A stretch of 64,000 nucleotides of DNA, taken from assembly GCF_003334385.1 (NCBI RefSeq), contig NZ_QOWN01000022.1. One strand, given 5' to 3'. A program made the translations under genes and the position numbers. This document shows positions 40,159 through 57,437 of the stretch, one piece after another. The notes under the pieces are model-generated. The model did not search any database, was not told the origin of the DNA, and saw only the letters and a list, made by a program, of their open reading frames with translations. Every line of letters begins with the position of its first letter. Position 1 is the first letter of the stretch. This DNA is from Escherichia coli (GTDB taxonomy: Bacteria; Pseudomonadota; Gammaproteobacteria; Enterobacterales; Enterobacteriaceae).

Positions 40159-41163
<1,005 letters not shown>

Positions 41164-41208
41164 CAAAAGCAATTTTTCCGGCTGTCTGTATACAAAAACG
41201 CCGCAAAG

Positions 41209-41222
41209 TTTGAGCGAAGTCA
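41209..41222. promoter_or_regulatory. FNR-binding site for fnrS promoter
   Basis: TTGAG-N4-GTCAA (consensus TTGAT-N4-ATCAA) centred about 43 nt upstream of FnrS 5' end. Confidence 0.6.
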
Positions 41223-41258
41223 ATAAACTCTCTACCCATTCAGGGCAATATCTCTCTT

Positions 41259-41380
41259 GCAGGTGAATGCAACGTCAAGCGATGGGCGTTGCGCTCCATA
41301 TTGTCTTACTTCCTTTTTTGAATTACTGCATAGCACAATTGATTCGTACGACGCCGACTTTGATGAGTCGGCTTTTTTTT
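41259..41380 (+). ncRNA. fnrS: FNR-activated small RNA FnrS
   Basis: GCAGGTGAATGCAACGTCAAGCGATGGGCGTTGCGCTCC...GACTTTGATGAGTCGGCTTTTTTTT matches recalled FnrS; terminal hairpin plus U8; between zntB and dbpA. Confidence 0.8.
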
Positions 41381-41437
41381 GCCTGTTATTTATCAGCGTC
41401 TACCCTTTAAGAGTCCACCCAATGACCAGAGGGAAAT

Positions 41438-41611
41438 ATGACGACACTTATTTATTTGCAAATTCCTGTCCCTGAACCGATTCCTGGCGATCCTGTTCCA
41501 GTGCCCGATCCGATCCCTCGCCCGCAACCCATGCCTGACCCACCACCCGATGAAGAACCGATTAAATTGTCGCATCGTGAGCGTAGATCTGCGAGGATAC
41601 GCGCCTGCTAA
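41438..41611 (+). CDS. small proline-rich ORF (57 aa) downstream of FnrS
   Basis: ATG 41438 preceded by AGAGGGAAAT RBS; MTTLIYLQIPVPEPIPGDPVPVPDPIPRPQPMPDPPPDEEP...; below the 60-aa ORF-track cutoff. Confidence 0.4.
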   Translation: MTTLIYLQIPVPEPIPGDPVPVPDPIPRPQPMPDPPPDEEPIKLSHRERRSARIRAC

Positions 41612-41640
41612 CTTTGCGTCGATGACCACGAGAATAGATT

Positions 41641-43014
41641 GTGACCGCTTTTTCTACCCTGAATGTTTTGCCTCCCGCCCAACTCACGAACCTTAATGAG
41701 TTGGGTTATTTAACCATGACGCCGGTGCAGGCCGCCGCGCTTCCGGCGATCCTTGCCGGAAAAGATGTTCGCGTGCAGGCGAAAACCGGCAGCGGCAAAA
41801 CGGCGGCTTTTGGCCTCGGCTTGTTACAGCAAATTGATGCGTCGCTATTTCAAACCCAGGCTTTAGTGCTGTGTCCTACGCGTGAACTGGCGGATCAGGT
41901 GGCAGGTGAATTGCGTCGGCTGGCGCGTTTTCTGCCAAATACCAAAATTTTGACGTTGTGCGGTGGTCAACCGTTCGGTATGCAGCGTGATTCGTTGCAA
42001 CATGCGCCGCATATTATCGTGGCAACGCCGGGGCGTTTGCTGGATCACCTGCAAAAAGGCACGGTATCACTGGATGCGTTGAATACGCTGGTGATGGATG
42101 AGGCCGACCGCATGCTGGATATGGGATTTAGCGATGCCATTGATGATGTCATCCGTTTTGCGCCTGCATCTCGACAGACGCTTCTGTTTTCGGCAACCTG
42201 GCCGGAAGCCATCGCTGCAATCAGCGGACGAGTGCAACGCGATCCTTTGGCGATTGAAATTGACTCAACAGATGCTTTGCCACCCATTGAACAACAATTT
42301 TATGAGACATCCAGCAAAGGCAAAATTCCTCTGTTGCAACGGTTATTAAGCTTGCATCAGCCATCCTCTTGCGTGGTGTTTTGCAATACCAAAAAAGATT
42401 GCCAGGCTGTCTGCGACGCGCTGAATGAAGTAGGGCAAAGTGCATTGTCATTACACGGCGATTTGGAGCAACGCGATCGCGATCAGACCCTGGTACGTTT
42501 TGCTAACGGTAGCGCCCGTGTACTGGTCGCGACTGATGTTGCTGCGCGTGGTCTGGATATTAAATCGCTTGAGCTGGTGGTGAACTTTGAGCTGGCGTGG
42601 GACCCTGAAGTTCATGTACATCGCATCGGTCGTACAGCTCGTGCAGGAAATAGCGGTCTGGCGATCAGTTTCTGTGCTCCGGAAGAAGCACAGCGGGCCA
42701 ATATCATTTCTGACATGTTGCAGATAAAACTTAACTGGCAAACGCCGCCAGCTAATAGTTCCATTGCGACGCTGGAAGCAGAAATGGCAACGTTGTGTAT
42801 CGATGGCGGGAAAAAAGCCAAAATGCGCCCGGGTGATGTATTAGGTGCACTGACAGGAGATATCGGGCTTGATGGCGCAGATATTGGCAAAATCGCCGTG
42901 CATCCGGCGCATGTCTATGTCGCGGTCCGTCAGGCTGTTGCTCATAAAGCATGGAAACAGTTACAGGGCGGGAAGATTAAAGGAAAAACGTGCCGGGTGC
43001 GGTTATTAAAATAA
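41641..43014 (+). CDS. dbpA: ATP-dependent DEAD-box RNA helicase DbpA
   Basis: 457-aa ORF (GTG start) with Walker A AKTGSGKT, DEAD box MDEAD, SAT motif. Confidence 0.93.
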   Translation: MTAFSTLNVLPPAQLTNLNELGYLTMTPVQAAALPAILAGKDVRVQAKTGSGKTAAFGLGLLQQIDASLFQTQALVLCPTRELADQVAGELRRLARFLPNTKILTLCGGQPFGMQRDSLQHAPHIIVATPGRLLDHLQKGTVSLDALNTLVMDEADRMLDMGFSDAIDDVIRFAPASRQTLLFSATWPEAIAAISGRVQRDPLAIEIDSTDALPPIEQQFYETSSKGKIPLLQRLLSLHQPSSCVVFCNTKKDCQAVCDALNEVGQSALSLHGDLEQRDRDQTLVRFANGSARVLVATDVAARGLDIKSLELVVNFELAWDPEVHVHRIGRTARAGNSGLAISFCAPEEAQRANIISDMLQIKLNWQTPPANSSIATLEAEMATLCIDGGKKAKMRPGDVLGALTGDIGLDGADIGKIAVHPAHVYVAVRQAVAHKAWKQLQGGKIKGKTCRVRLLK

Positions 43015-43039: not shown

Positions 43040-43140
43040 GAGTAAACATCTTATTCGGGATTGCCGGATGCGACGCTGGCCGCGTCTTATCCGGCCTCCA
43101 TAAGAGTAGCCCGATACGCTTGCGCATCGGGCGCTATCCT
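43040..43140. repeat. REP-like palindromic element
   Basis: gccggatgcgacgctggccgcgtcttatccggcc between convergent dbpA and ttcA. Confidence 0.55.
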
Positions 43141-43142
43141 GG

Positions 43143-44078
43143 TTATTTCACTTCAACCACATTCAGCCGTAACTCATCCAACTGATTTTCATCTTCTTCT
43201 GGCTGCCAGCACGCCGGTTGTAGTGGGATCTCTTCGCGATCAAACGCCAGATCACCCCCGTTAACCACTTCAGAACCGTGGGTGATGCCTTTGAAATCGA
43301 ACAGGTTGGTATCGCACAGATGCGACGGCACCACATTCTGCATCGCGCTGAACATCGTCTCGATACGCCCTGGATAACGTTTATCCCAGTCACGCAACAT
43401 GTCAGCAATCACCTGACGTTGCAGGTTAGGCTGTGAACCGCACAGGTTGCACGGAATAATCGGGAACGCTTTTGCATCGGCAAATCGCTGAATATCTTTC
43501 TCGCGGCAGTAGGCCAGCGGACGAATAACGATATGTTTGCCATCATCGCTCATCAGTTTCGGAGGCATACCTTTCATCTTACCGCCGTAGAACATATTTA
43601 AGAACAACGTTTGCAGGATATCGTCACGATGGTGACCCAACGCGATCTTCGTCGCCCCCAGTTCCGTTGCGGTACGATAAAGGATACCGCGACGAAGGCG
43701 AGAACACAGTGAGCAAGTGGTTTTGCCCTCTGGAATCTTCTCTTTCACGATACCGTAAGTATTCTCTTCAACAATCTTGTACTCAACGCCCAGCTTTTCA
43801 AGATACTCGGGCAGAACGTGTTCCGGGAAGCCCGGTTGCTTTTGATCGAGGTTAACAGCCACCAGCGAAAAATTGATTGGCGCGCTTTGCTGCAAATTGC
43901 GCAGAATCTCCAGCATGGTATAGCTGTCTTTACCCCCGGAGAGGCAAACCATGATGCGATCGCCTTCTTCAATCATATTGAAGTCAGCAATGGCTTCGCC
44001 CACGTTACGACGCAGACGTTTTTGTAATTTGTTCAGGTTGTATTGTTCTTTCTTTGTAATTTGTTGATTTTCTTGCAT
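43143..44078 (-). CDS. ttcA: tRNA 2-thiocytidine(32) synthetase
   Basis: 311-aa ORF with PP-loop SGGKDS and Cys motifs; 5' end adjoins prophage integrase as in K-12 Rac. Confidence 0.92.
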
Positions 44079-44129
44079 TATTTCAGTTCTCTGGTACTAA
44101 ATGGGGCAAATTGGGGGCAAACTTTGCAA

Positions 44130-45365
44130 CTACGATAACCGCGCATTCAACATGGCTATCTGTTCGTCGTTCATGTCATCAATCCACATACCGTAAATTT
44201 CATACACCATCTGCGCAGTTTCATGCCCCATTTGGCTGGCTATAAATGCCGGGTTCGCTCCTGCCGTCAACAGCCAGCAGGCAAAAGTATGCCGCGTATG
44301 GTACGGATTACGGCGGCGAATACCAGCACGTTTTACTGCTGCATTCCACCTTGCCCCCAAACTGCTTACCGAGTAATAAGGTTTTTGTTTTCCGTTACAC
44401 ACCCTGGGCATGAAAACAAAATGCAGTTTTTGCTTTTCGGTTCTGCCGTACTCCCGATGATAAAAGGTGATTTCGCTTTTGCGATGATGCCCGGTCAGTT
44501 TGTATTGCTCCTTCAGTGCTTCAAGAGCAGGCTGCAGTAGTGTTACTGTTCGGATCCCGGCATTTGTTTTTGGGGGACCGAACATATCAAGTATCGTCAG
44601 GTTTCTTCTGACATTCACTATTCCCTTTTCGAGATCCACATCCTCCCACGCCAGAGCTGCCAGTTCCCCGTGACGAAGTCCTGAGTAAACGGCAAATTTC
44701 CACAAGTTCTGGCTCTGTCCTTTTTCACTTTCCATTAATGCATTGAATTCTGTTTTAGATAACGGATCAGGCTTTATTCTGTTTCGCTGTAATTTTTTTA
44801 CTCCTTCAAATGGTTTGGTTGATATAAATCCCGACTGATACGCAAAACGCAACAGCGAACAGAGCAGGGCGATATAGTTATCAACTGTGCGCACGGTTCT
44901 TCCTTTTTTGTTGGATCTTGGATTATCCAGGTAAAGCGTTTCTCCATGCAGCAGTTCATTCCGGTAGTTTAAGATATCGCTATAACGAATATGTGATATC
45001 GGGGTACTTTCACAAATTATTATTCTGAGTGTTTTTAATTGTGATTTCGTTTTCTTCATTGTGTTTGTTGTTAACTCTGTCTCTTTAATTTTTGTCCAGA
45101 TATCACAAAGCTCTCCGAACGTTTTTATGACTCTCGTTGTCACCATTTTTGCCCCAGTGCTGGACTGGGGAAAACGTCTTAAATACTCAAATTCACCGGA
45201 GTTTATTTCATGAACTATCAGCGCTCTTAAATTTCCGGCCTTTTTAATATTACTGTTTGTAATCTCCCAGCCTTTTAATGTTTCCCGACATCGTTTTCCT
45301 CGAAACATGAACCAGATGCGAATGTATCTACCTCTAATCTCGACACCTGTTGGTAATTTAGACAT
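44130..45365 (-). CDS. intR: prophage tyrosine integrase
   Basis: 411-aa ORF with C-terminal recombinase motifs (HTRHTFA ... Y). Confidence 0.9.
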   Translation of the reverse strand: MSKLPTGVEIRGRYIRIWFMFRGKRCRETLKGWEITNSNIKKAGNLRALIVHEINSGEFEYLRRFPQSSTGAKMVTTRVIKTFGELCDIWTKIKETELTTNTMKKTKSQLKTLRIIICESTPISHIRYSDILNYRNELLHGETLYLDNPRSNKKGRTVRTVDNYIALLCSLLRFAYQSGFISTKPFEGVKKLQRNRIKPDPLSKTEFNALMESEKGQSQNLWKFAVYSGLRHGELAALAWEDVDLEKGIVNVRRNLTILDMFGPPKTNAGIRTVTLLQPALEALKEQYKLTGHHRKSEITFYHREYGRTEKQKLHFVFMPRVCNGKQKPYYSVSSLGARWNAAVKRAGIRRRNPYHTRHTFACWLLTAGANPAFIASQMGHETAQMVYEIYGMWIDDMNDEQIAMLNARLS

Positions 45366-45366
45366 A

Positions 45367-45582
45367 TCATGAGTCTTTGATAAACTGATTTATCTTTGGA
45401 TAGTTGTACCAGATAATCCCTCGTTTGCTGTCTGGCTTACCTAAAGGAGATACTCGTTTGAAGTGGAAGCCCTCCACCCAACAGTTCTGGCGGTATGCTT
45501 CAATTTGTCTGGCCCCCAGACCAGTGCGAAGCATCAGGCCGTATTCAACCATCCACTCTTCATTAAAGATTACTTGTGCCAT
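45367..45582 (-). CDS. xisR: prophage excisionase-like protein
   Basis: small ORF directly upstream of int (ORF track 45367..45606). Confidence 0.65.
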
Positions 45583-45660
45583 CGCATCACCTCTGGCAGG
45601 CGCCAATGTTAGACTGAAATTGACGCCCGATGTTGATTATTAATAATCAGCTATGAAGTT

Positions 45661-45870
45661 TTAATTTGAATACAATGCAATTCTCGAGGACTGAAGTTTC
45701 TCGCAATTAAAATTTATCAGTTTTACTTTCTGCTCTCTGGAAACGCCTGCTTCTTTTTTACCTGAGAGCATTTTTTCGCATTCTGATTTCGTTAGTTTAG
45801 ATTTTGAATATCTTGTCCAGTTAGTAGGAGTGCCACCTTCCTTTTCAATAGTGGCGGTAATTTTATACAT
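45661..45870 (-). CDS. ydaC: Rac prophage small protein
   Basis: 69-aa reading from internal Met MYKITATIEKEGG of ORF 45661..45942. Confidence 0.6.
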   Translation of the reverse strand: MYKITATIEKEGGTPTNWTRYSKSKLTKSECEKMLSGKKEAGVSREQKVKLINFNCEKLQSSRIALYSN

Positions 45871-46057
45871 GAACACCTCCATTATTATTTCCAGTGGTTC
45901 GTTTATTCCATCTTTCGAGTGCTTCTTTTTCACTTCCACCATAACCGGTTCGGGATTCGCATCCGTTACACTTCGCTCGGTAATATCCTGAAATGGCTTT
46001 CACCGTTACTGATGGACAACCACAAAATGGACATGGTTTAACATTGTCATATCTCAT
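45863..46057 (-). CDS. ralR: restriction alleviation protein Lar/RalR
   Basis: ORF track 45863..46069; Cys-rich MRYDNVKPCPFCGC...CNGC. Confidence 0.7.
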   Translation of the reverse strand: MRYDNVKPCPFCGCPSVTVKAISGYYRAKCNGCESRTGYGGSEKEALERWNKRTTGNNNGGVHV

Positions 46058-46112
46058 AATTTTTCTCATAAAAATATTTCAAGTTGGCGGTGCATTACAC
46101 CGCCAGGCTGAA

Positions 46113-46922
46113 TTATTCCTCTGAATTATCGATTACACTGTATTCCCCGGTTAATACAGAGGAATCTGCAGGATCGATTGTCAGTGGTTCCTTTTCATCC
46201 ATTGATACTGCACGCTGGATCTCAATTGATACGGGCAGATATTTGAACAGGCGACGAATAGCCGTTTTCTTTGCCATTTCTTCCCAGTGAGTTACCCACG
46301 GCCCGTTATTACCAGCTTTACTCAGGCTGCGCACCAGCTCAATCTGTTTGCGCGTCATAACTTCAAACTGAGTACCTCCGTCTTTCAGTCTTGCGACAGC
46401 ATAGACGTGGGTAACCGGGGCATCTTCGTTTTCTCCCGGGCGGTGTATTAACTTTTCATCAAGGCCAAATTCGAAGCTAAACTCGTCACCTTCACGGACA
46501 ACACGGGCTGACAGGCTGGCGATTTGACCAGAACGGCGAGCCAGATCAATCATGCCGCGATAGCCAATGATTAGCTGAACGTTCTTTTTACCGCTCTTTT
46601 CGTTTTTATTACCAAAAGGCAGTAAATATGCATGACCGAGGGCGCTACCTGGCTCAAGTCCGAGCTGTGAACACTGTACGATCGCACTGACAAAACTCAT
46701 AGTGTCACAGTTTCCTAACGCCGGAACTTTACGAATTTCTGTGGTGGCGATACGGATCATACGTTCAGCCGTCATATGGCGTGGAAGAGCTGCTGCCAGT
46801 TGCTCTTTCATTGATGGCTGGTTAATAAAACTAATCACGTCGCTATTTTTAACTGCTGCTGGTGCACGGTTTCCCTGAGTTTTTTGCAGATCGGCTTTTG
46901 CGATTGGTGGTTGCTTAGTCAT
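46113..46922 (-). CDS. recT: RecT single-strand annealing recombinase
   Basis: ORF track 46113..46979; recognised RecT start [13 protein letters not shown]. Confidence 0.92.
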
Positions 46923-49515
46923 TTGCATATTCCTTAGCCCAGCGGGGCAGTGATAATGTCTTAATAGCTGGCCATTCATCGGTATTCAGGCAGTCAGACA
47001 GGGTTCGCAGATTGCGGTGATATTCCTGTTGACCTGCCAGTTTTGCTTCTTCGCCCATCATGAAAATTTCAACCGGATAACGTCCGCATTCAATAGTTGT
47101 GCTGGCAACCAGAAAAACGAAAGTTGGCTGCACTCCAAACTGTGCTTCATAACCGTCACTGTAGAATGCATCCTGAACGTGATAGCGGTAGTCGTAATAA
47201 GCGGTTTTGAATCGTTGAATATCCGCCGTAGTTTTCACGTCCATGATCCAGTGAAATTCAGGGATAATTTTGTCCGGACGGCACCGACACAAAATTCCTG
47301 TTTCAGGATCTTCCCAGTAAATTGATGATTCAGCGTGTCCGGCGCTTTCAACAAGCCATTGCCCCAGCGGCAAAGCCATAACGCTTTGATACATGAGTTC
47401 AATTTTCCGGCCTTCTTCCGCAGTGATAACCGTTTTTCCTGTGCTTGCGCATTCCATCAGAAACGCTTTCTCTTCTTCTTTTCCGGCGTTTGTACGGCGG
47501 TTAAATTCAGGTGCTACGATAAAGCGGTTACTGAATTCTTCCGGTTCAAGTACCCGGCAGTGGAAAGCAGTTCCTAAATCGAGCGTTTTTGTCTTTGTGG
47601 TGTTCACGGGGGCATTTTTACGCCACAAATATAGTGCCGGAGTATCAGCAATGTCATCGAGCTGAGACTTACTGATACCGGGACCCGCGTGGTAATTCTC
47701 ATTCGAAATTCCGTAATAAATACCTGGCTCTATGTCTTCTACGATTACGGGATCTGCGACTTCGCCAGTTTCATCACTGCAATCGCGATGCGGATCGCTG
47801 CCAGCATTCTCATTGTGCGGATGTTCAGCGCCTTCCATTTCCTCCGGATCATTTTCCTTAGCTTCAACCTGACTCTCTTCATCGAATGTTTCCTGGTATG
47901 TTGCGTCGCCCATCACCGCACCACAGTCAGGGCCGTTATCCCCGCCAGTCTGGCCGCAGGCATTGCAGGCTATTTCCGGTTCCTGTTGCACTACTGGCTC
48001 AGGTTGATTCATATCTGGGCTGGTTTTTTCCGTTTCTGGCTGGTTCTGGTACACACAATCGCGAGTCTGGATCCCCTTTACCCATTTCGGATCGTTCGGG
48101 TCGCTAATTCCGTCAACAAATTCACCACGTGATGCAGCAAGCAATTTATCGGCATCGACAGGATTTTTTGATGGAATGTTTTTCCGGGCTTCATGGAGTT
48201 CTGCCCGCAGTTCCTGATATTTCGCATCAACAGAATTTACCTGTGACTGAGCATCCAGCGGCTGCGTGTCCTGATGATGTTCAGTTGCGTCCGGTTCCAT
48301 TGTTTCAGCCTCTCCCTGTTCAACTGCCGTTGTTCCAGATGGTTGCGGTTTTTCTTCATCATCCTGTTTTCCTTCTTCTGTTACTCGCTGCGGCATCGGG
48401 GCAGAGGAGCGACCGCAGGCAATATCCACGATTTCCGGATCAGGGTTGGCATGATCGGTTTCAGTCAGTACTTTGTTCAGATATTCAGTGACGTGCGCGG
48501 GGATGACCTCGATCCCAATTGGTGCTTCTTTTACGGACGCAACCACGATGGCGCGCGAATAATCCAGCCCGCCAGGCATGGTGATGAATTTGTCGCGGAA
48601 AACAGAAAAGGGCGGTTTATTTTCAGCGATAATTTCCTCAATGCGTTTAGCGTGTGCCGGATGAAGGTTATAGATGTCCAGATCCATTGAACGGGCCAGT
48701 ACGCCAGTGGCTACGTCGCGCGCCAGTGACGTCAGATCGTGTACGAAACCTTCGCCGCGATCGGTGAGGTTTCCGCCGCCAGCATTAGCACCGGAAGCCG
48801 TGCGAGTGATGTGTGAAACACGATTACCCTTCATCCACTCTTTTGTCAGCAGTCCTCGATCGGTGTAGTCAGCGTTCAGGTATGCTTCGAAAAAAGCAGT
48901 TATCAGTCCCAGGTTTGAATTACCAGGATTAGGGAAAACTTTGTCAGTGTCACGAACCAGTTTGTGGAGTTCGCGAATTTCCAGCGGGTCGAGCAGGCTG
49001 GTTTTGTGGGAAACAGCCAGGGCAGTAACAGCCGGTAGTTCTTCAGCCCGAGCAATGTGTAATGCCTGGAGTCCGTCGCGTGAAACGTGCGTTACCGGTT
49101 TTTCGCTGCCGTGTTGAGCAAGCCAACGAATGGGCAGTTCCTGGCCAGAAATTGGGAGTAGCATATTCTCCTCAATCTCAGTCATGTCTTCGCCGTTGAC
49201 GTTGGTATTGCCTTGATAGTGAGCGTTGTCTGGTGCTGCTCCCGGTTTTAGTTCCCATGTCATGGAGTCTTTGCTGAGTTGATAGCGTTCACTCCAGGTA
49301 AAATCGATCTCACCTTCAGCGGGCAGGTCATTAACGACAGGAAAATTCGTGGCAACAGCTTTAAAATAGCTGCTCAGTTTTTTACCTGACTTAACGATCA
49401 GGTAGTCCAGAGTGGCACAGGTCGATTCAAAATCGTTGCTTGCCCACAGGACGACGTCAGGTTCACCGGATGATTTTTTCGCTTTCCGTAACAGGAAGAG
49501 TGGTTTTGTGCTCAT
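46915..49515 (-). CDS. recE: exonuclease VIII (RecE)
   Basis: 866-aa ORF overlapping recT start; acidic low-complexity middle region; C-terminal nuclease. Confidence 0.92.
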
Positions 49516-49616
49516 TGTTTTTTAACCTCAACTCAGATTAAAATTCGTTTTGTTCAGTGAATGATCTTGCCGGATACACACTGTTCATAGCCTGCGCCAT
49601 ACGCAGGCTATTTCTT

Positions 49617-49892
49617 TCAGATTTCACCTTTTAATTTCATTGCAATTAGAGTTGCCAGAAATTCGGCTTTTTTTTCTGCGGGCAGATTCTTTCCGATATG
49701 CACCAGGCACATTTTTTTGACACCTTCATCAAGTGTTTTTACGTTGCCTGATGGACCATCGATATCAACCACAGTGAATGGGGTTTCTTTATTTTCTGTT
49801 TTAATTACGTAGCCAATGCGCTTTCCTTCCAGATTCACCTCGTGAACAATGTCATCGGTAGTTACAACAGTGGCTTCATAATTGGTAATCAT
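49617..49892 (-). CDS. racC: Rac prophage protein RacC
   Basis: ORF track 49617..49940; start MITNYEATVVTTDD. Confidence 0.8.
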   Translation of the reverse strand: MITNYEATVVTTDDIVHEVNLEGKRIGYVIKTENKETPFTVVDIDGPSGNVKTLDEGVKKMCLVHIGKNLPAEKKAEFLATLIAMKLKGEI

Positions 49893-49966
49893 GTTTTTCT
49901 CCTTAATTAAGGTTGAGCGAATACCTGCCATTTCTGGCATAAATTCAGTTTCGAATAGTCAATTAA

Positions 49967-50137
49967 TTAAAGTTCATGTGCCATCTGGTCTTTTTCGGCA
50001 CAAGCTTCACTGCAATATTTTCTCGGTTCGTCTTTTGATAAAATCCCGTGCATGAAGTGAAGCATTCTTTCAATAGCTTTGCTTTTTTCAACGTCTTTTT
50101 TGCAAAGGTGGTAAGCACATTTTATTTTCTTAGTCAT
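49967..50137 (-). CDS. ydaE: small Cys-rich zinc-binding protein (56 aa)
   Basis: minus-strand [59 protein letters not shown], below ORF-track cutoff. Confidence 0.7.
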   Translation of the reverse strand: MTKKIKCAYHLCKKDVEKSKAIERMLHFMHGILSKDEPRKYCSEACAEKDQMAHEL

Positions 50138-50358
50138 CACCATGACTCCGCCTTTACAGGTAAACCATCACGACCGAGGAAGACTTTAATCATGCGGTCA
50201 GTAATGCATGTTTTTGTGGTCAGGTTACGAATATATAGTTTTCGCTTTTTAATATTGTTTGCCGAGGCAATATATGTCCGGCCTTCATGAAGAACATAAT
50301 CGCCAGGAGTCACACACTGACGTGGTATTTCATCAGTTCCGAAGTGATGTGCAATCAT
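50137..50358 (-). CDS. kilR: FtsZ-targeting killing protein KilR
   Basis: ORF track 50137..50370; start [14 protein letters not shown]. Confidence 0.85.
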
Positions 50359-50799
50359 AATTATCTCCATTTTTACAAATGAACTTTGTTGATGCGGTGC
50401 CTGGTGCCTCCAGGTGACTGCAACCAGTTAACAATTACAGTCGGCTTTCCCACCCAAACCAATAAGGACTAACATGACTTTTAACTGTGCCACGTGCGCT
50501 TAGCCGCATTCACCGCATCACAAAATTCACTTTAAAAAGGGCGGACATCAGCCGAACTTCAAGAAAAAAACTGATGCCGCCAGGACTACACACAGCAATG
50601 TCGTTATTTACAACCGGAGGCGCACTCCCACCATTTAAATTTAACAGACAAGACCGACTCTTTATGGATATCGGAAATGCGCCTTCGTGTTGTGCCCGGT
50701 TTTATTTCACCACCTCCGGGCTTCGGTGGTCTCGGCTATACCCCTACAGCGAGAGCTTGTGTTAACATTTCAATACCCTTACAGTTGAGAGTTATTGAT

Positions 50800-51288
50800 A
50801 TGTTGGATGTATTTACTCCATTGTTGAAACTTTTTGCTAACGAGCCACTCGAAAGACTTATGTATACGATTATCATTTTTGGTCTCACTCTCTGGCTGAT
50901 ACCGAAAGAGTTTACTGTCGCATTCAATGCTTATACTGAAATACCTTGGCTCTTTCAGATTATCGTTTTTGCCTTTTCTTTCGTGGTCGCCATTTCCTTC
51001 TCAAGATTGCGAGCACATATTCAAAAGCATTATTCATTACTACCAGAGCAACGAGTATTGCTTCGTTTATCTGAGAAAGAAATCGCTGTATTTAAAGATT
51101 TCCTTAAAACAGGAAATCTTATTATCACTTCTCCTTGCCGTAACCCGGTTATGAAAAAATTAGAACGGAAGGGCATCATTCAACATCAGAGTGATAGCGC
51201 AAACTGTTCTTATTATCTCGTCACCGAAAAATACTCCCATTTTATGAAGTTATTCTGGAACAGCAGGAGTAGACGTTTTAATCGTTAG
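50800..51288 (+). CDS. sieB: superinfection exclusion protein SieB
   Basis: ORF track 50677..51288; start at internal Met MLDVFTPLLK; TM segments. Confidence 0.8.
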   Translation: MLDVFTPLLKLFANEPLERLMYTIIIFGLTLWLIPKEFTVAFNAYTEIPWLFQIIVFAFSFVVAISFSRLRAHIQKHYSLLPEQRVLLRLSEKEIAVFKDFLKTGNLIITSPCRNPVMKKLERKGIIQHQSDSANCSYYLVTEKYSHFMKLFWNSRSRRFNR

Positions 51289-51440
51289 CTTACTGTGTGC
51301 TTCTCCAACCATCGGCGCGCACCAGTTTCGGTTTTAAATATTTTGCTTTTTGTATACGTCATCGCGGTGAACGTTCCATCCTGGTTGGGGAACACGCCGC
51401 ACACCAGGGATTCGTTATTGCGGAGGTCGATTTTTTGCAT
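51285..51440 (-). CDS. ydaF: Rac prophage small protein (51 aa)
   Basis: minus-strand ORF MQKIDLRNNESLVCGVFPNQDGTFTAMTYTKSKIFKTETGARRWLEKHTVS. Confidence 0.65.
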   Translation of the reverse strand: MQKIDLRNNESLVCGVFPNQDGTFTAMTYTKSKIFKTETGARRWLEKHTVS

Positions 51441-51450
51441 TTTTCGCACC

Positions 51451-51585
51451 TCACATTTTGTTGTTGCGGATAGAGGCTTCTGCCTGCCAGAGATCCCAGT
51501 CGTTGCTGCGTAAAGCCTGCACAGCCTGGTTGTAAGTGATGCCGCAACAATCCATCAAATACTGAACTACTTCGTAATGCACCAT
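51451..51585 (-). CDS. ydaG: Rac prophage small protein (44 aa)
   Basis: minus-strand ORF MVHYEVVQYLMDCCGITYNQAVQALRSNDWDLWQAEASIRNNKM. Confidence 0.65.
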   Translation of the reverse strand: MVHYEVVQYLMDCCGITYNQAVQALRSNDWDLWQAEASIRNNKM

Positions 51586-51764
51586 CTTATCTCTCCCCTT
51601 AACGCCGGGTGGCGGAACTAACTGCTGCACTGCAAAATTTGAATCCCGCCGTCATGTTCATACGCCTCGGGCTGGCTACTTAACCCCTTACCACTGCCTG
51701 GTAACTCGAAGTATTGCCCGGCGTTCTGTGGGGCGGGGTGGGTGGTATGCTGGAACTATAGGTA

Positions 51765-51820
51765 ATGCCTAATTGATTGTCAATAGGTTATGCCTAATGT
51801 TTTGAGCGTAACCTAATAGG
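51765..51820. promoter_or_regulatory. operator-like repeat set on the 3' side of racR (OL-like)
   Basis: TAGG/CCTA-arm dyads; 24-nt block (51777-51800) is the inverted copy, 23/24 identical, of 52421-52444. Confidence 0.5.
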
Positions 51821-51893
51821 TGATGGCGACAGCAGAAAGTGATGGGGGGGTTAAATAACGGAATCCAGGAGTTTTCCGTCAGACCATATAAGT

Positions 51894-52370
51894 TTAAGTT
51901 CCAGTTTTTGTGATGTTCTGGCTTTTCCGTTCAGATTCTAGAGCTTTCAGATACTTACCCACTTTCATTTCCATCGCTGCTATGTAGGCGCGAACATCGT
52001 GGTCAACCCAATCTGGTTCTGTAGCATTTCCAGATAACAGGAAAGCTACAATCGCTCTTATTTCATCAGAGGCTGCTTGATAAAGGTTGTTTATATCTAA
52101 AAGTTCACTTTTTGTATCTGAATTGGTGGGGGTTGGTATGGGGTATTCGTTAAGCCCCCAATGCTCTGGACCAACAACATCAGAAAAGAAACGCCATAAT
52201 TCTGGAAGTTTATCTTTACTTATAGAGCCTTTCTTAATCCAGTCATAAATTGATGGTGGTTGGACTTTGAAGTGGCGTGCGACCTCCGCCTTTGATTTGA
52301 CGGATCCCGATGCGATTTTTTTGTTAATGGCCTGCTCTATCGCTCGGCCTAAGTCTTTACCACTAAGCAT
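51894..52370 (-). CDS. racR: prophage repressor RacR
   Basis: 158-aa ORF with N-terminal HTH, divergent from ydaS. Confidence 0.88.
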   Translation of the reverse strand: MLSGKDLGRAIEQAINKKIASGSVKSKAEVARHFKVQPPSIYDWIKKGSISKDKLPELWRFFSDVVGPEHWGLNEYPIPTPTNSDTKSELLDINNLYQAASDEIRAIVAFLLSGNATEPDWVDHDVRAYIAAMEMKVGKYLKALESERKSQNITKTGT

Positions 52371-52390
52371 TGCTTAATATTCTCCTATGC

Positions 52391-52465
52391 GCATTACATT
52401 AGGCAATCCCTACCCTTATCGCATTAGGCATAGCCTATTGACAATTGCGTTAGGCGTAGCCTAAT
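52391..52465. promoter_or_regulatory. racR/ydaS divergent promoter-operator region (OR-like)
   Basis: dyads TAGGC-N3-GCCTA (52424-52436) and TTAGGC-N2-AGCCTAA (52449-52463), half-site cattacattaggca, embedded TTGACA. Confidence 0.6.
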
Positions 52466-52493
52466 ATTTCTGTGTGTTTTTGGAGTTCATTCG

Positions 52494-52790
52494 ATGAAAA
52501 AAGAGAACTATTCATTCAAGCAAGCTTGTGCTGTTGTCGGTGGGCAATCAGCAATGGCTAGGCTTTTAGGTGTATCACCTCCAAGCGTAAATCAATGGAT
52601 CAAAGGGGTACGTCAATTGCCTGCCGAGAGATGTCCAGCAATTGAACGTGCAACAAGAGGTGAGGTTCTGTGCGAAGAACTTCGTCCTGATATTGACTGG
52701 TCATATTTACGACGTTCGGCATGTTGTTCGCAGAATATGTCAGTGAAGCAACTAAATGACAGTAACAAATCCTCATTTGATCATACCTGA
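52494..52790 (+). CDS. ydaS: Cro-like HTH protein
   Basis: 98-aa ORF immediately rightward of racR operators. Confidence 0.85.
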   Translation: MKKENYSFKQACAVVGGQSAMARLLGVSPPSVNQWIKGVRQLPAERCPAIERATRGEVLCEELRPDIDWSYLRRSACCSQNMSVKQLNDSNKSSFDHT

Positions 52791-52812
52791 AACATCAAGA
52801 GGCAAATGATTC

Positions 52813-53235
52813 ATGAAAATCAAGCATGAGCACATCGAATCAGTGTTGTTTGCCCTGGCAGCCGAAAAAGGGCAGGCATGGGTAGCCAATGCAATTACTG
52901 AAGAATATCTGCGCCAGGGGGGCGGCGAATTGCCCCTGGTTCCAGGCAAGGACTGGAACAATCAGCAGAATATCTATCACCGTTGGTTGAAAGGTGAAAC
53001 GAAAACGCAAAGAGAAAAAATTCAGAAGCTGATCCCAGCAATTCTGGCAATCCTTCCGCGCGAGCTGCGTCACCGATTCTGCATCTTCGATACCCTGGAA
53101 CGCCGTGCATTACTGGCGGCGCAGGAAGCGTTAAGTACGGCAATTGATGCGCATGATGATGCAGTCCAAGCCGTTTACCGGAAAGCGCATTTCAGCGGCG
53201 GCGGGTCTTCCGACGATTCTGTCATTGTTCATTAA
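52813..53235 (+). CDS. ydaT: Rac prophage protein YdaT
   Basis: 140-aa ORF; synteny. Confidence 0.85.
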   Translation: MKIKHEHIESVLFALAAEKGQAWVANAITEEYLRQGGGELPLVPGKDWNNQQNIYHRWLKGETKTQREKIQKLIPAILAILPRELRHRFCIFDTLERRALLAAQEALSTAIDAHDDAVQAVYRKAHFSGGGSSDDSVIVH

Positions 53236-53247
53236 GCAAAAGTTTCC

Positions 53248-54105
53248 ATGCTGTTTGTGCTTATTCTAAGCAACCGGGCAGCATCATACGGGGCAATTAT
53301 GGCCGCATTACCATACATGCAACTGTACATAGCTGATTACCTGGCTGACACCATGCATTTGTCAGCAGAGGAGCACGGTGCGTATTTGTTGCTGATGTTC
53401 AATTACTGGCAAACAGGAAAGCCAATACCCAAAAACAGGCTGGTAAAAATTGCCCGCCTGACTAACGAGCGATGGGCTGATGTTGAACCATCCTTGCGGG
53501 AGTTTTTTTGCGATAACGGCGAGGAATGGGTGCATCTTCGGATTGAGGAAGATCTGGCATCAGTCAGGGAAAAATTAACCAAAAAATCAGCCGCAGGAAA
53601 AGCATCGGTTCAGGCCAGAAGAAGCAGAAAGGAAGCAGATGTTCAAACAAAACAAGAGAGAAATTTAACAGGTGTTCAAACAGATGTTGAAGTGGTGTTT
53701 GAACATGATGTCAACACAAAGGCAACTAATAAAGATACAGATAAAGATCTAAAAACAGATCCCCCCCTAAATCCCCCCCGGGGGAATCGAGGTGTTAAAA
53801 AGTTTGACCCTCTGGATATTGCTTTGCCGAACTGGATTTCTGTCTCGCTTTGGCGTGAGTGGGTTGAATTTCGCCAGGCATTGCGTAAACCGATTCGAAC
53901 GGAGCAGGGCGCTAACGGGGCGATACGGGAGCTGGAAAAATTCCGCCAGCAGGGTTTTTCACCTGAGCAGGTGATTAGACACAGCATTGCCCATGAATAC
54001 CAGGGCTTGTTTGCGCCGAAAGGCGTTCGGCCTGAGACGTTGCTTCGACAGGTTAACACCGTCTCGTTTCCGGACAGTGCGATCCCACCAGGCTTCAGGG
54101 GGTAA
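53248..54105 (+). CDS. ydaU: replication-module protein (O-like position)
   Basis: 285-aa ORF; synteny. Confidence 0.8.
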   Translation: MLFVLILSNRAASYGAIMAALPYMQLYIADYLADTMHLSAEEHGAYLLLMFNYWQTGKPIPKNRLVKIARLTNERWADVEPSLREFFCDNGEEWVHLRIEEDLASVREKLTKKSAAGKASVQARRSRKEADVQTKQERNLTGVQTDVEVVFEHDVNTKATNKDTDKDLKTDPPLNPPRGNRGVKKFDPLDIALPNWISVSLWREWVEFRQALRKPIRTEQGANGAIRELEKFRQQGFSPEQVIRHSIAHEYQGLFAPKGVRPETLLRQVNTVSFPDSAIPPGFRG

Positions 54106-54111
54106 CGAAGC

Positions 54112-54858
54112 ATGAAAAATATTGCGACAGGCGGCGTTCTGGAACGTATCCGCAGACTGGCCCCGCCACATGTAACCGCGCCATTCAGGACGGTGGCGGA
54201 GTGGCGCGAGTGGCAACTTGCAGAAGGCCAGAAACGTTGTGAGGAGATCAACCGTCAGAATCGTCAGTTGCGGGTGGAAAAAATCCTGAATCGCTCCGGC
54301 ATCCAGTCGTTGCACCGCAAATGCTCGTTTTCGAATTACCAGGTGCAGAACGAAGGGCAGCGATACGCGTTGAGTCAGGCGAAATCCATCGCTGATGAAC
54401 TGATGACCGGGTGTACAAATTTTGCGTTCAGCGGAAAACCTGGTACCGGAAAAAACCATCTGGCGGCGGCTATCGGGAATCGCCTGCTGAAAGATGGCCA
54501 GACAGTGATTGTGGTTACCGTGGCTGATGTCATGAGTGCCCTACACGCCAGCTATGACGACGGGCAATCAGGCGAAAAATTTTTGCGGGAACTGTGCCAA
54601 GTGGATCTGCTGGTTCTTGATGAAATTGGCATTCAGCGCGAGACAAAAAACGAGCAGGTGGTGCTGCACCAGATTGTTGATCGCCGGACAGCGTCGATGC
54701 GCAGCGTGGGGATGCTGACAAACCTGAATTATGAGGCCATGAAAACATTGCTCGGCGAGAGGATTATGGATCGCATGACCATGAACGGCGGGCGATGGGT
54801 GAATTTTAACTGGGAGAGCTGGCGTCCGAATGTCGTCCAGCCAGGAATTGCGAAGTAA
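54112..54858 (+). CDS. ydaV: DnaC-like helicase loader (AAA+)
   Basis: 248-aa ORF with Walker [11 protein letters not shown] and Walker B LLVLDEIG. Confidence 0.88.
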
Positions 54859-54880
54859 TTTTTACCGGGAGAAAAATTTA

Positions 54881-55642
54881 ATGGAGACTGTTTTTGACGC
54901 ACTGAAAGCAATGGGAAAAGCTACATCCATAGAACTTGCTGCGCGACTTGATATCAGCCGTGAAGAAGTGCTGAACGAACTATGGGAACTGAAAAAGGCT
55001 GGTTTCGTTGATAAAAGCGCGTACACCTGGCGTGTGGCTGATAACAACGTTCAGCAGGAACAGCCAGCGCCGGCAGAACTGCCGGAAGAAACTACCACGG
55101 CAACAGTCGCGAAAATTTCAGAGAGCGATTTAACTGCGACGATTGAACAACGTGGTCCACTAACTGCGGATGAACTGGCTACGTTGTTCGGTACCACATC
55201 CCGCAAAGTGGCTTCAACGCTGGCAATGGCAATCAGCAAAGCTCGTCTGATTCGCGTTAATCAGAACGGTAAATTTCGTTACTGCATGCCGGGCGGTAAT
55301 TTACCAGCAGAGCCGAAAGCTGCATCGGTAGCGGAAACAGATGGTAAAGCCTTTCCTCAGCTAGCCGGTGTTGCGTTACCAGTACAGGAAGCTGCAACAC
55401 AGGAAGATATTAAAACAGAAACTGTGGCGGACATTGTGCAGTCGTTGCCATCGTTTACTGAAACGCAAGCGGATAACCTGATTTTACCATCGCTGCATAT
55501 GGCAAACCGTGAACTGCGTCGGGCGAAAAATCATGTCCAGAAGTGGGAGCGAGTCTGCGCCGCGCTGCGGGAGCTGAACAAGCACCGGGATATTGTTCGA
55601 CAGATTACTGATTCTTCCCGCCGTGTTGTATCGGAAAAGTGA
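54881..55642 (+). CDS. ydaW: prophage protein with N-terminal winged-helix-like region, full length
   Basis: ORF track 54830..55642; start at ATG 54881 ([13 protein letters not shown]) avoids overlap with ydaV. Confidence 0.6.
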
Positions 55643-55657
55643 TTGCCGAAGGCGCTT

Positions 55658-56089
55658 ATGGCAAAAGTATTTACACAAGAAGAGCGAGAAAAAATTAAAG
55701 GGCAGGTTGTTGAGCTAGTACGCCGGAGTGGGCGCGAGACGTTACGGCAACTGGAAGCCAAGACAGGTGCGACAAGATATCTGATGAGCGTTCTCGCCAG
55801 AGAGCTGGTTGCCAGTGGCGATGTATACAACTCTGGTTACGGGTTATTCCCGTCTGAACAGGCTCGTAAGGACTGGCAAAATGCCCGCAAAAAACTATCT
55901 AGGGCAAAGGTGAAGAAACCATCTGTGGTTGATCCGGACCTTATCTGGTCATTACCAGACGGAGAAATACGCCGCTACGACAGGCGTCTGAACATAATCT
56001 GTCGCGAGTGCCGGAAGAGCGAAGTTATGCAGCGTGTGCTGGCGTTTTATCAGAATGGTTTTCGAGAGAGGCTTGGAGATCAGGGATGA
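55658..56089 (+). CDS. hypothetical prophage protein (about 143 aa)
   Basis: ORF track 55643..56089; GC-typical codon usage, abuts ydaW stop; no recognisable motif except basic stretch and CRECRK. Confidence 0.5.
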   Translation: MAKVFTQEEREKIKGQVVELVRRSGRETLRQLEAKTGATRYLMSVLARELVASGDVYNSGYGLFPSEQARKDWQNARKKLSRAKVKKPSVVDPDLIWSLPDGEIRRYDRRLNIICRECRKSEVMQRVLAFYQNGFRERLGDQG

Positions 56090-56282
56090 ATAGAACGATG
56101 AAGGATGGAAGCTACATATTCTCGGTACTAAGATTTATTTTTCTGACACAAAATGACCATTTGGCGTTACATAATCCCAAAAAAACGTATCAAAAATCTC
56201 AAAATGCGTTACGATTAGAGAGTATTTTGATTCTGCGTGCTCATTTTTTGATTGCTGTGGCTTTTTGTTGTGGGAGTGTTGA

Positions 56283-57437
56283 ATGGATTATTTATCAGAA
56301 GTGTTAAAAATCATTGAAGGTGCAACAAAGGCAAATGCTTCGATGGCTAGTAATTATGCTGGGTTGCTGGCAGATAAGCTCGAACAAAAAGGGGAGGTCA
56401 AGCAAGCCAGAATGATAAGAGAAAGGTTGCTTAGAGCTCCCCAGGCGTTGGCAGGAGCTCAAAGGGCTGGAGGTGGGATATCTCTGGGCTCATTACCGGT
56501 AGATATTGATAGTCGACTCAACACTGTTGATGTCAGTTATCCTAAATTAGACAGTTCAGAGATTTTTCTGCCTGCAGCAATCAGTACCCGTGTTGAAGAG
56601 TTTATCACTAATGTTCAACGTTATGATGAGTTTGTTAAAGCTGATGCAGCATTGCCGAGTCGTATGCTCGTGTATGGAAAGCCAGGAACAGGTAAGACTA
56701 TGTTATCTAAGTACATCGCTACCCGCTTAGATTTTCCACTTCTTACAGTGCGTTGCGATACTTTGATTAGTAGTTTATTGGGACAAACCAGCAAAAATCT
56801 TAGACAGGTTTTCGATTATGTAATGCAGAGGCCATCAGTGCTTTTTTTAGACGAATTTGATGCTTTAGCTGGAGCAAGAGGTAATGAGAGAGATATAGGT
56901 GAGCTTCAGCGAGTTGTCATTTCACTATTGCAGAATATGGATGCGGCATCAGAGGATACGGTAATTATTGCCTCAACTAACCATGAGCAACTTCTGGATC
57001 CTGCAATCTGGAGGCGATTTAGCTTCAGAATTCCAATGCCTCTGCCTGACATACATCAGAGAGAGTTAATTTGGAAAAATCGTTTAAAGAATATGATATG
57101 TAGCGATCTAGATTTAAGTGATTTATCAAGAAAATCGGAAGGATTATCCGGAGCAATAATTGAACAGGTGAGCTTGGATGCACGTAGGGATGCAGTTATT
57201 GAAGGTGCAAGTGTGATAAATCACCACAAATTGTATAGGCGTTTGTATCTTGCTCAATCGCTTATGGAAGGTGTAAATTTAAGCACTTACGAAGATGAAA
57301 TTCGTTGGTTACGTTCTAAAGATAAAAAATTATTTTCTATCAGAGTTCTTGCTAATTTGTACAAACTTACATCAAGAGTAATTTCAAACATTCTGAAGGA
57401 GTCAGGAGCATATGAGCAGAAGGGGTACACAGTTTAG
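56283..57437 (+). CDS. AAA+ ATPase (classic AAA clade), first gene of cargo cassette
   Basis: 384-aa ORF; Walker A GKPGTGKT (56676-56699), Walker B VLFLDEFD (about 56841-56861), sensor-1 IASTN, Arg finger region PAIWRRF; AT-rich. Confidence 0.85.
   Translation: MDYLSEVLKIIEGATKANASMASNYAGLLADKLEQKGEVKQARMIRERLLRAPQALAGAQRAGGGISLGSLPVDIDSRLNTVDVSYPKLDSSEIFLPAAISTRVEEFITNVQRYDEFVKADAALPSRMLVYGKPGTGKTMLSKYIATRLDFPLLTVRCDTLISSLLGQTSKNLRQVFDYVMQRPSVLFLDEFDALAGARGNERDIGELQRVVISLLQNMDAASEDTVIIASTNHEQLLDPAIWRRFSFRIPMPLPDIHQRELIWKNRLKNMICSDLDLSDLSRKSEGLSGAIIEQVSLDARRDAVIEGASVINHHKLYRRLYLAQSLMEGVNLSTYEDEIRWLRSKDKKLFSIRVLANLYKLTSRVISNILKESGAYEQKGYTV

Follow-up and report, generated by a model that had tools for sequence, protein, structure and literature searches.

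The stretch of DNA between the small RNA gene fnrS and the helicase gene dbpA of Escherichia coli raises the question of whether a 57-codon, proline-rich ORF located there is a genuine small-protein gene and, if so, how it is transcribed and what is selected in it. The window, i.e., the whole stretch of DNA that was analyzed (64,000 nucleotides), had been the subject of an earlier note, which described a PxP-rich peptide with a basic tail that starts at an ATG (41438) behind a GAGGG Shine-Dalgarno (SD) sequence. Both the ribosome-binding site and the 57-aa peptide between FnrS and dbpA were found as described in the sequence and in the ORF list (Table 1). Proline accounts for 16 of the 57 residues, and the net charge was −6 over residues 13–41, +5 over residues 42–57 and −1 over the whole peptide.

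The peptide showed a 100% match to YP_009518775.1 (K-12 b4743), and K-12 ynaL (NC_000913.3, 1409308–1409481) mapped exactly onto window positions 41438–41611 with an offset of 1,367,870. In MG1655 the genes are arranged in the order zntB, fnrS (b4699, 1409129–1409250), ynaL (b4743) and dbpA (1409511–1410884); the K-12 annotation also contains a tiny protein gene, ynaN (b4773), just upstream of zntB. A 551-nt stretch around the ORF was found to have a match in 5,393 of 5,426 complete RefSeq E. coli genomes (95–100% identity), and in the matching genomes the ORF is labeled "ynaL: proline-rich small protein YnaL" or "protein YnaL" and is flanked by zntB and dbpA. Besides, the Pfam family PF23677 ("Protein YnaL-like") matched residues 1–57 at model positions 1–57 (E 2.2e-40, 136.8 bits). 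The ORF does not differ from YnaL of K-12 (b4743; PF23677; formerly the ncRNA candidate C0343; sORF IVP7 in ribosome profiling), with which it shares sequence, mapped coordinates and the fnrS and dbpA neighbors; it is the same gene. The ORF is therefore ynaL, annotated and experimentally confirmed, and finding it again from the sequence is a rediscovery of a known gene. We put the probability that the ORF is ynaL, that ynaL is a real gene and that it is independent of FnrS, taken jointly, at about 85%.

Table 1. Positions in the window of ynaL, its parts and its neighbors
Feature	Position	Strand	Description
FNR box of the fnrS promoter	41211..41224	+	TTGAGCGAAGTCAA; center lies about 41.5 bp before position 41259, where FnrS has its 5′ end
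fnrS sRNA including terminator	41259..41380	+	K-12 annotation b4699
Candidate ynaL promoter	41379..41406	+	by eye: −35 TTGCCT (41379–84), 16-nt spacer, −10 TACCCT (41401–06)
ynaL Shine-Dalgarno region	41428..41437	+	AGAGGGAAAT; GAGG core 5 nt from ATG
ynaL (b4743) CDS	41438..41611	+	57 aa, MTTLIYLQIPVPEPIPGDPVPVPDPIPRPQPMPDPPPDEEPIKLSHRERRSARIRAC; ATG 41438, TAA 41609–41611
Acidic PxP core, codons 13–40	41474..41557	+	protein-constrained; includes DPPPD motif (41537–41551)
Block A, codons 41–46	41558..41575	+	CCGATTAAATTGTCGCAT; conserved as nucleotide and as protein
Variable 9-nt spacer, codons 47–49	41576..41584	+	constant length; site of premature stops
Block B, codons 50–56	41585..41605	+	AGATCTGCGAGGATACGCGCC; 21-nt conserved element overlapping the basic tail
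dbpA (b1343)	41641..43014	+	GTG start, 457-aa ORF; DEAD-box helicase specific for 23S rRNA

Published data had already established translation. In tetracycline ribosome profiling (TetRP), the ATG of ynaL was reported as a start site (Nakahigashi et al., 2016; PMC4909307). The entry P_ECK1339_1340_1407332 in supplementary table 5 of that study (57 aa) is identical to the window ORF in both DNA and peptide, and the sORF, named IVP7, was among five picked for genomic Venus fusions. VanOrsdel et al. (2018; PMC6001520) tagged the chromosomal gene with SPA at its 3′ end and obtained an immunoblot band from LB cultures; the name YnaL was given in that study, in which the adjacency to dbpA and a possible operon with dbpA were also noted. 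In addition, RIBOseq of EHEC gave a ribosome coverage value (RCV) of 2.49 for the 57-aa ORF (Neuhaus et al., 2017; PMC5331693). Thus, ynaL is shown to be translated from its own SD and ATG. The suggestion in the earlier note that the ORF encodes a genuine small protein was correct and had been settled before, and two of the checks proposed there, ribosome profiling and epitope tagging at the native locus, had published outcomes in its favor (the TetRP start site and the SPA band, respectively). No function, partner or phenotype of YnaL was reported in the literature searched.

The ORF could nevertheless be read as a chance reading frame within an ncRNA or within the 5′ UTR of dbpA, since the region was originally reported as ncRNA C0343 (Neuhaus et al., 2017; PMC5331693) and since two short blocks near its 3′ end (Blocks A and B) are indeed conserved as nucleic acid. 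As cited in the same paper, however, RNAcode (Washietl et al., 2011) showed that C0343 encodes a 57-aa protein, and the C0343 family was taken out of Rfam. It is absent from Rfam 15, and a search of positions 41381–41640 against Rfam 15 gave no match even at E ≤ 1. Further evidence against this reading came from the comparison with other species.

A protein search gave 164 homologue clusters, and all 120 homologues listed carry PF23677. Among the matches listed all were from Enterobacteriaceae, to which ynaL appears to be restricted within these matches, and the genera included Escherichia, Salmonella, Citrobacter, Enterobacter, Klebsiella and Raoultella as well as Kosakonia, Leclercia, Lelliottia, Superficieibacter, Pseudocitrobacter and Intestinirhabdus. 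An alignment of 32 homologues showed the last ~42 residues to be near-invariant, whereas the first ~15 varied in sequence and length. A degenerate DNA pattern for PDPPPDxxPIK was also run against a collection with one genome per species and found 87 loci, 86 of which were enterobacterial; the exception, from Acidobacteria (L015), was a chance match with an in-frame stop. The motif DPPPD was likewise invariant or nearly so in orthologues found without the motif search. In nearly all evaluable Enterobacteriaceae loci the fnrS core was located 231–312 nt upstream of the motif, and ynaL was followed by the N-terminus of DbpA in at least 78 of the 84 loci that could be evaluated, which confirmed that the order fnrS-ynaL-dbpA is conserved.

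Codon statistics were obtained from 77 distinct orthologous Enterobacteriaceae sequences. The ATG was kept in 76 of the 77, and the GAGG core of the SD showed 80–90% conservation. Over the acidic core (codons 13–40) the entropy was about 0 bits at codon positions 1 and 2 and 0.7–1.9 bits at position 3; codons 13–32 lie outside the search pattern, yet they had the same entropy profile. Pooled Nei-Gojobori estimates for the core, in which synonymous sites were saturated, were pS 0.62, pN 0.12 and pN/pS 0.19, compared to a pN/pS of 0.15 for codons 2–25 of dbpA and 0.79 for codons 2–12 of ynaL. Residues other than proline (D, I, R, Q, M) were conserved as well. The 3-nt periodicity of the core and its pN/pS therefore identify ynaL as protein-coding and subject to purifying selection, and the third check proposed in the earlier note, conservation by dN/dS, came out in favor of selection at the protein level. 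These codon patterns show residues about 13–46 to be the part of YnaL that is selected as protein; they also show that the first ~12 residues can vary freely and that the stop codon is not fixed in place. The published evidence of translation and the pattern across codon positions have already refuted the reading as a chance ORF, and we consider its probability close to nil. It is near-certain that ynaL is translated and that an acidic PxP rod is what is selected in its product.

Since ynaL already has an annotation, a name and a Pfam family, and since three experimental methods have confirmed it, the value of its recovery is mainly that of a positive control, in which a true small-protein gene was picked out from raw sequence alone. 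What is added at the codon level is that only residues about 13–46 behave like protein, that several lineages can dispense with the basic tail and that the gene overlaps, at its 3′ end, an element conserved as nucleotides just before dbpA. The last point bears on the control of dbpA, which encodes a ribosome-assembly helicase about which little is understood.

Conservation at the 3′ end of ynaL followed a different pattern from that of the core, with pS dropping from 0.62 in the core to 0.076 (Block A) and 0.005 (Block B). In Block A, ATT and the TCG of S45 were present in 77 of 77 sequences and CCG in 73 of 77. Within Block B, TCT (S51) and CGC (R55) were found in all 77 sequences, and even rare codons were retained, namely ATA (76/77), AGG (75/77) and AGA (69/77). 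In 14 of the 77 sequences an in-frame TAG, TAA or TGA was detected at codon 47 or 48 of ynaL (equivalent to 41576–41581), that is, before Block B (loci L005, L013, L016, L018, L020, L031, L032, L037, L050, L063, L066, L069, L071, and L079). These truncated genes belong to the E. cloacae/hormaechei group, Lelliottia, Huaxiibacter, part of Kosakonia and relatives, and one MAG, and they represent at least four independent events. In other species the ORF was 2–5 codons longer or ran into dbpA, the latter including loci of the K. oxytoca group (L022, L029, and L049). The C-terminus of YnaL is evolutionarily plastic, with a basic tail that is dispensable in several lineages. Block B was unchanged after the premature stops, with a pi of 0.044 vs. 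0.44–0.47 at third positions of the core in the 14 species. Since Block B is frozen even when it is untranslated, the basic tail is not conserved as peptide, and this comparison shows that Block B is conserved as nucleic acid.

Blocks A and B are probably a non-coding element tied to the expression of dbpA. Block B ends 31–40 nt before the dbpA start, and a layout of two blocks at fixed spacing, followed by a variable stretch and then by the SD of dbpA, would fit either a promoter/operator of dbpA or a recognition site in its 5′ UTR. The nucleotide-level conserved element at the 3′ end of ynaL is apparently undescribed and represents a modest new lead.

Several candidates for the nature of this element were rejected or found no support. 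A repeated genomic motif was ruled out, as Blocks A and B are single-copy in E. coli, with a single location in each of the 5,393 genomes. Mimicry of, or complementarity to, 23S rRNA by positions 41558–41640, as might serve autoregulation by DbpA, gave alignment scores of 19 and 16, which were within those of dinucleotide shuffles (means of 19.3 and 18.5). A conserved RNA structure was unsupported. Although GUCGCA of Block A (41569–74) can pair with UGUGAC (41639–44), which covers the GTG of dbpA, RNAalifold kept only this 6-bp helix, with a consensus of −3.7 kcal/mol and a covariation term of 0.02, the lack of covariation being due to the invariance of both sides; the partners of Block B in the E. 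coli minimum free energy fold lie in non-conserved sequence. No sigma-70 promoter was detected at the blocks by consensus scan, and an extended −10-like TGcGAGGAT in Block B was judged by eye to be weak and to have a GC-rich discriminator. A CsrA-type GGA hairpin (GCG-AGGAUA-CGC) in Block B was not supported either, the stem being broken in Kosakonia-type sequences (GAG for GCG); no E. coli paper that connects CsrA with dbpA came up in the literature search.

A second overlapping reading frame, either the +1 frame (MKNRLNCRI..DLRGYAP) or an antisense frame in codon register, might also explain why third positions in the blocks are frozen. Over 41549–41611, 74 of the 77 sequences had an open +1 frame and 75 had an open antisense frame, but open frames are expected here anyway because the blocks are invariant. 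Moreover, neither frame had a conserved start codon; the +1 frame had an ATG in only 53 of 77 sequences and its C-terminus falls in the length-variable region, and the antisense frame would be unconstrained across the proline core, since its first codon positions correspond to the freely varying third positions of ynaL. We regard a second coding frame as extremely unlikely.

The earlier note had further suggested that ynaL may be co-expressed anaerobically by read-through from FnrS, and this part of it was not supported. Transcription of fnrS requires active FNR, and the fnrS promoter is off aerobically. The YnaL-SPA band and the TetRP start signal, on the contrary, were seen in aerobic cultures. 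FnrS itself was recognized by Rfam RF01796 (41259–41376; 134.8 bits, E 2.4e-25), and its intrinsic terminator, with a GC-rich 8-bp stem at 41353–41372 (−13.8 kcal/mol) followed by a T8 (U8) run, is canonical and strong. In Shigella flexneri RNA-seq, in which dbpA and not ynaL was measured, dbpA had a log2 value of −1.86 without O2 vs. with O2, i.e., it was ~3.6-fold lower, and showed no significant change in an fnr mutant (PMC4229854). The canonical FNR site noted in the dbpA promoter region in that study is the FNR box of fnrS. A promoterless ynaL that is expressed and anaerobically co-induced through the FnrS terminator would agree with the 57 nt that separate this terminator from the ynaL ATG, with the adjacency of fnrS and ynaL in nearly all loci and with a sigma-70 consensus scan of 41100–41750 in which no promoter was reported. 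Set against the aerobic signals, the strength of the terminator and the oxygen response of dbpA, as well as the conserved hexamers at promoter-like spacing in the spacer between fnrS and ynaL, these points leave read-through very unlikely as the main source of ynaL mRNA, although a low level of it may occur.

Instead, ynaL would be transcribed independently of the FNR-activated fnrS promoter, probably driven by a weak promoter overlapping the FnrS terminator and the spacer. The TTGCCT and TACCCT hexamers of the candidate promoter, which overlaps the end of the FnrS terminator, were 80–100% conserved, whereas the 16-nt sequence between them varied. The heptamer TCTACCC recurs in the fnrS promoter (41231–41237), where it showed no conservation. 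The supplements of PMC7815308, PMC4161252, PMC4782308, and PMC6131387 contained no transcription start or 3′-end data for the locus. On the downstream side, the stop codon of ynaL and the GTG of dbpA on the same strand are separated by 29 nt, and the terminator scan found no terminator-like site after 41372, including this gap. Because the gap is so short and has no terminator inside, ynaL is likely to be co-transcribed with dbpA, which is the probable downstream partner in the ynaL transcription unit.

A possible pairing between FnrS and ynaL was also noted, in which the C/U-rich single-stranded linker of FnrS (41296–41322) pairs with the SD and start of ynaL (41427–41445) at −13.2 kcal/mol. 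If true, ynaL would be repressed by its neighbor under anaerobiosis, the opposite of co-expression. The pairing was not significant, as 4% of random 40-nt windows scored as well.

As to the function of the product, we tentatively prefer a role in trans, though at somewhat less than even odds. As a short ligand or spacer of the polyproline type, YnaL would bind a protein or a partner in ribosome assembly that has a functional link to DbpA or to 50S assembly. The cis element formed by Blocks A and B would be separate from this role and belong to dbpA expression, its overlap with the ORF being a coincidence. This preference is based on the conservation at the amino-acid level and on the stable accumulation of the tagged protein, both of which also fit a role in cis.

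The main rival is that ynaL acts chiefly in cis and is a proline-rich leader of dbpA, conserved as nascent chain and not as free protein. Translation of the PxP/DPPPD stretch and of Block A would then block Rho and/or open the weak helix over the GTG of dbpA, and the output of dbpA would consequently follow the capacity of the cell for forming Pro-Pro bonds. Precedents are known in the proline-codon leaders mgtL and mgtP and in tnaC with its rut site. Moreover, PPP, DPP and PPD are stalling motifs that need EF-P, and the conserved DPPPD should make translation of ynaL EF-P-dependent. Like mgtL and mgtP of Salmonella and the tnaC-rut-tnaA arrangement, ynaL is a short ORF directly 5′ of a longer gene, co-oriented with it as is expected of a leader peptide, and it combines proline codons and an EF-P-sensitive motif with C-rich RNA that may load Rho. 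The gap to dbpA without a terminator and the near-invariance of DPPPD are consistent with this reading. So is the composition of the core, which is rut-like (42–47% C, 18–19% G) and ranks 8th by C/G among 12,785 windows of 78 nt. The pairing of Block A over the dbpA start, the sole helix kept by RNAalifold, points in the same direction. Block A is, in addition, always translated, because the stop in all 14 truncated species falls just after it. With an EF-P-dependent, rut-like core and a translated Block A, translation of ynaL could therefore shield the RNA from Rho or unmask the dbpA start.

Both DPPPD and the rut-like composition, however, follow from the proline-rich coding sequence itself, C-richness being automatic from CCN codons. 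The helix is merely 6 bp, with the low consensus energy and the lack of covariation given above. Unlike mgtL, mgtP and tnaC, ynaL has no conserved alternative stem-loops and no attenuator, since neither alternative structures nor an attenuator terminator were found by the terminator scan and RNAalifold. Across species, the spacing between the stop of ynaL and the start of dbpA ranged from about 60 nt to overlap, so coupling by termination and reinitiation is not conserved. With 57 codons ynaL is also long for a leader, its tagged product accumulates detectably, as a pure leader peptide seldom does, and the non-proline residues are conserved too. We consider a role mainly in cis unlikely, although it comes next to the preferred role in trans. 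More doubtful still is a third proposal, in which the end of ynaL and the leader of dbpA form one regulatory module that consists of the ~48-nt two-block element and an EF-P-dependent, C-rich proline ORF. If true, it would couple the synthesis of DbpA, a helicase that remodels 23S rRNA in its peptidyl-transferase region, to the efficiency with which ribosomes form Pro-Pro bonds, and YnaL would be a "peptidyl-transfer sensor" leader besides, or in place of, a free protein.

Structure prediction is in line with a rod-like product. AlphaFold2, run with the alignment of 32 sequences, gave an extended chain with no secondary structure past residue 8, a pLDDT of about 90 at residues 21–40 and a pTM of 0.22, which fits a core that forms an extended polyproline-type rod without a globular fold. 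Among known proteins, the proline-rich spacer of TonB (PF16031 TonB_N; NF008084) resembles YnaL in having alternating X-Pro with an acidic and then a basic stretch, and both it and the YnaL core would be expected to form a rigid polyproline-II rod. The compositional similarity to YnaL residues 9–43 was weak (NCBIfam E 2.9e-4), and YnaL differs from TonB in having neither the transmembrane anchor nor the C-terminal domain. Homology to TonB was rejected, as NF008084 gave 20.8 bits compared to a cutoff of 315 and PF16031 gave E 0.75, in agreement with low-complexity similarity.

The proline-rich antimicrobial peptides oncocin, Bac7 and apidaecin bind the ribosomal exit tunnel. YnaL is similarly short and contains a PRP-type motif (IPRPQPMP), and its gene adjoins that of a factor that acts on the peptidyl-transferase region; the resemblance is a lead only. 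YnaL showed no sequence match to oncocin, Bac7 or apidaecin. These peptides are strongly cationic, in contrast to the conserved core of YnaL, and the net charge of −6 over residues 13–41 does not fit a cationic antimicrobial peptide of this type.

Some further observations were made in the window. The PxP core (41462–41560) was found to be the most C-rich stretch of the 64 kb (47% C and 18% G in 78 nt). GATC (Dam) sites at 41489, 41507, 41512, and 41586 amount to about 23/kb in the 174 nt of ynaL vs. 3.7/kb in the window; three of them arise from GAT-CCN (Asp-Pro) codon pairs and one is located inside Block B. Just past the dbpA stop (43058–43096), a sub-threshold match to Rfam naRNA4 (CssrE) was obtained on both strands (29.1 bits compared to a gathering threshold of 59.5), and this element is a GC-rich palindrome resembling a REP element. 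From about position 44029 to 64000 (K-12 1411899 onward), coordinate mapping to MG1655 shows the window passing from ttcA to the Rac cryptic prophage, which begins with intR, and roughly its last 20 kb is prophage DNA.
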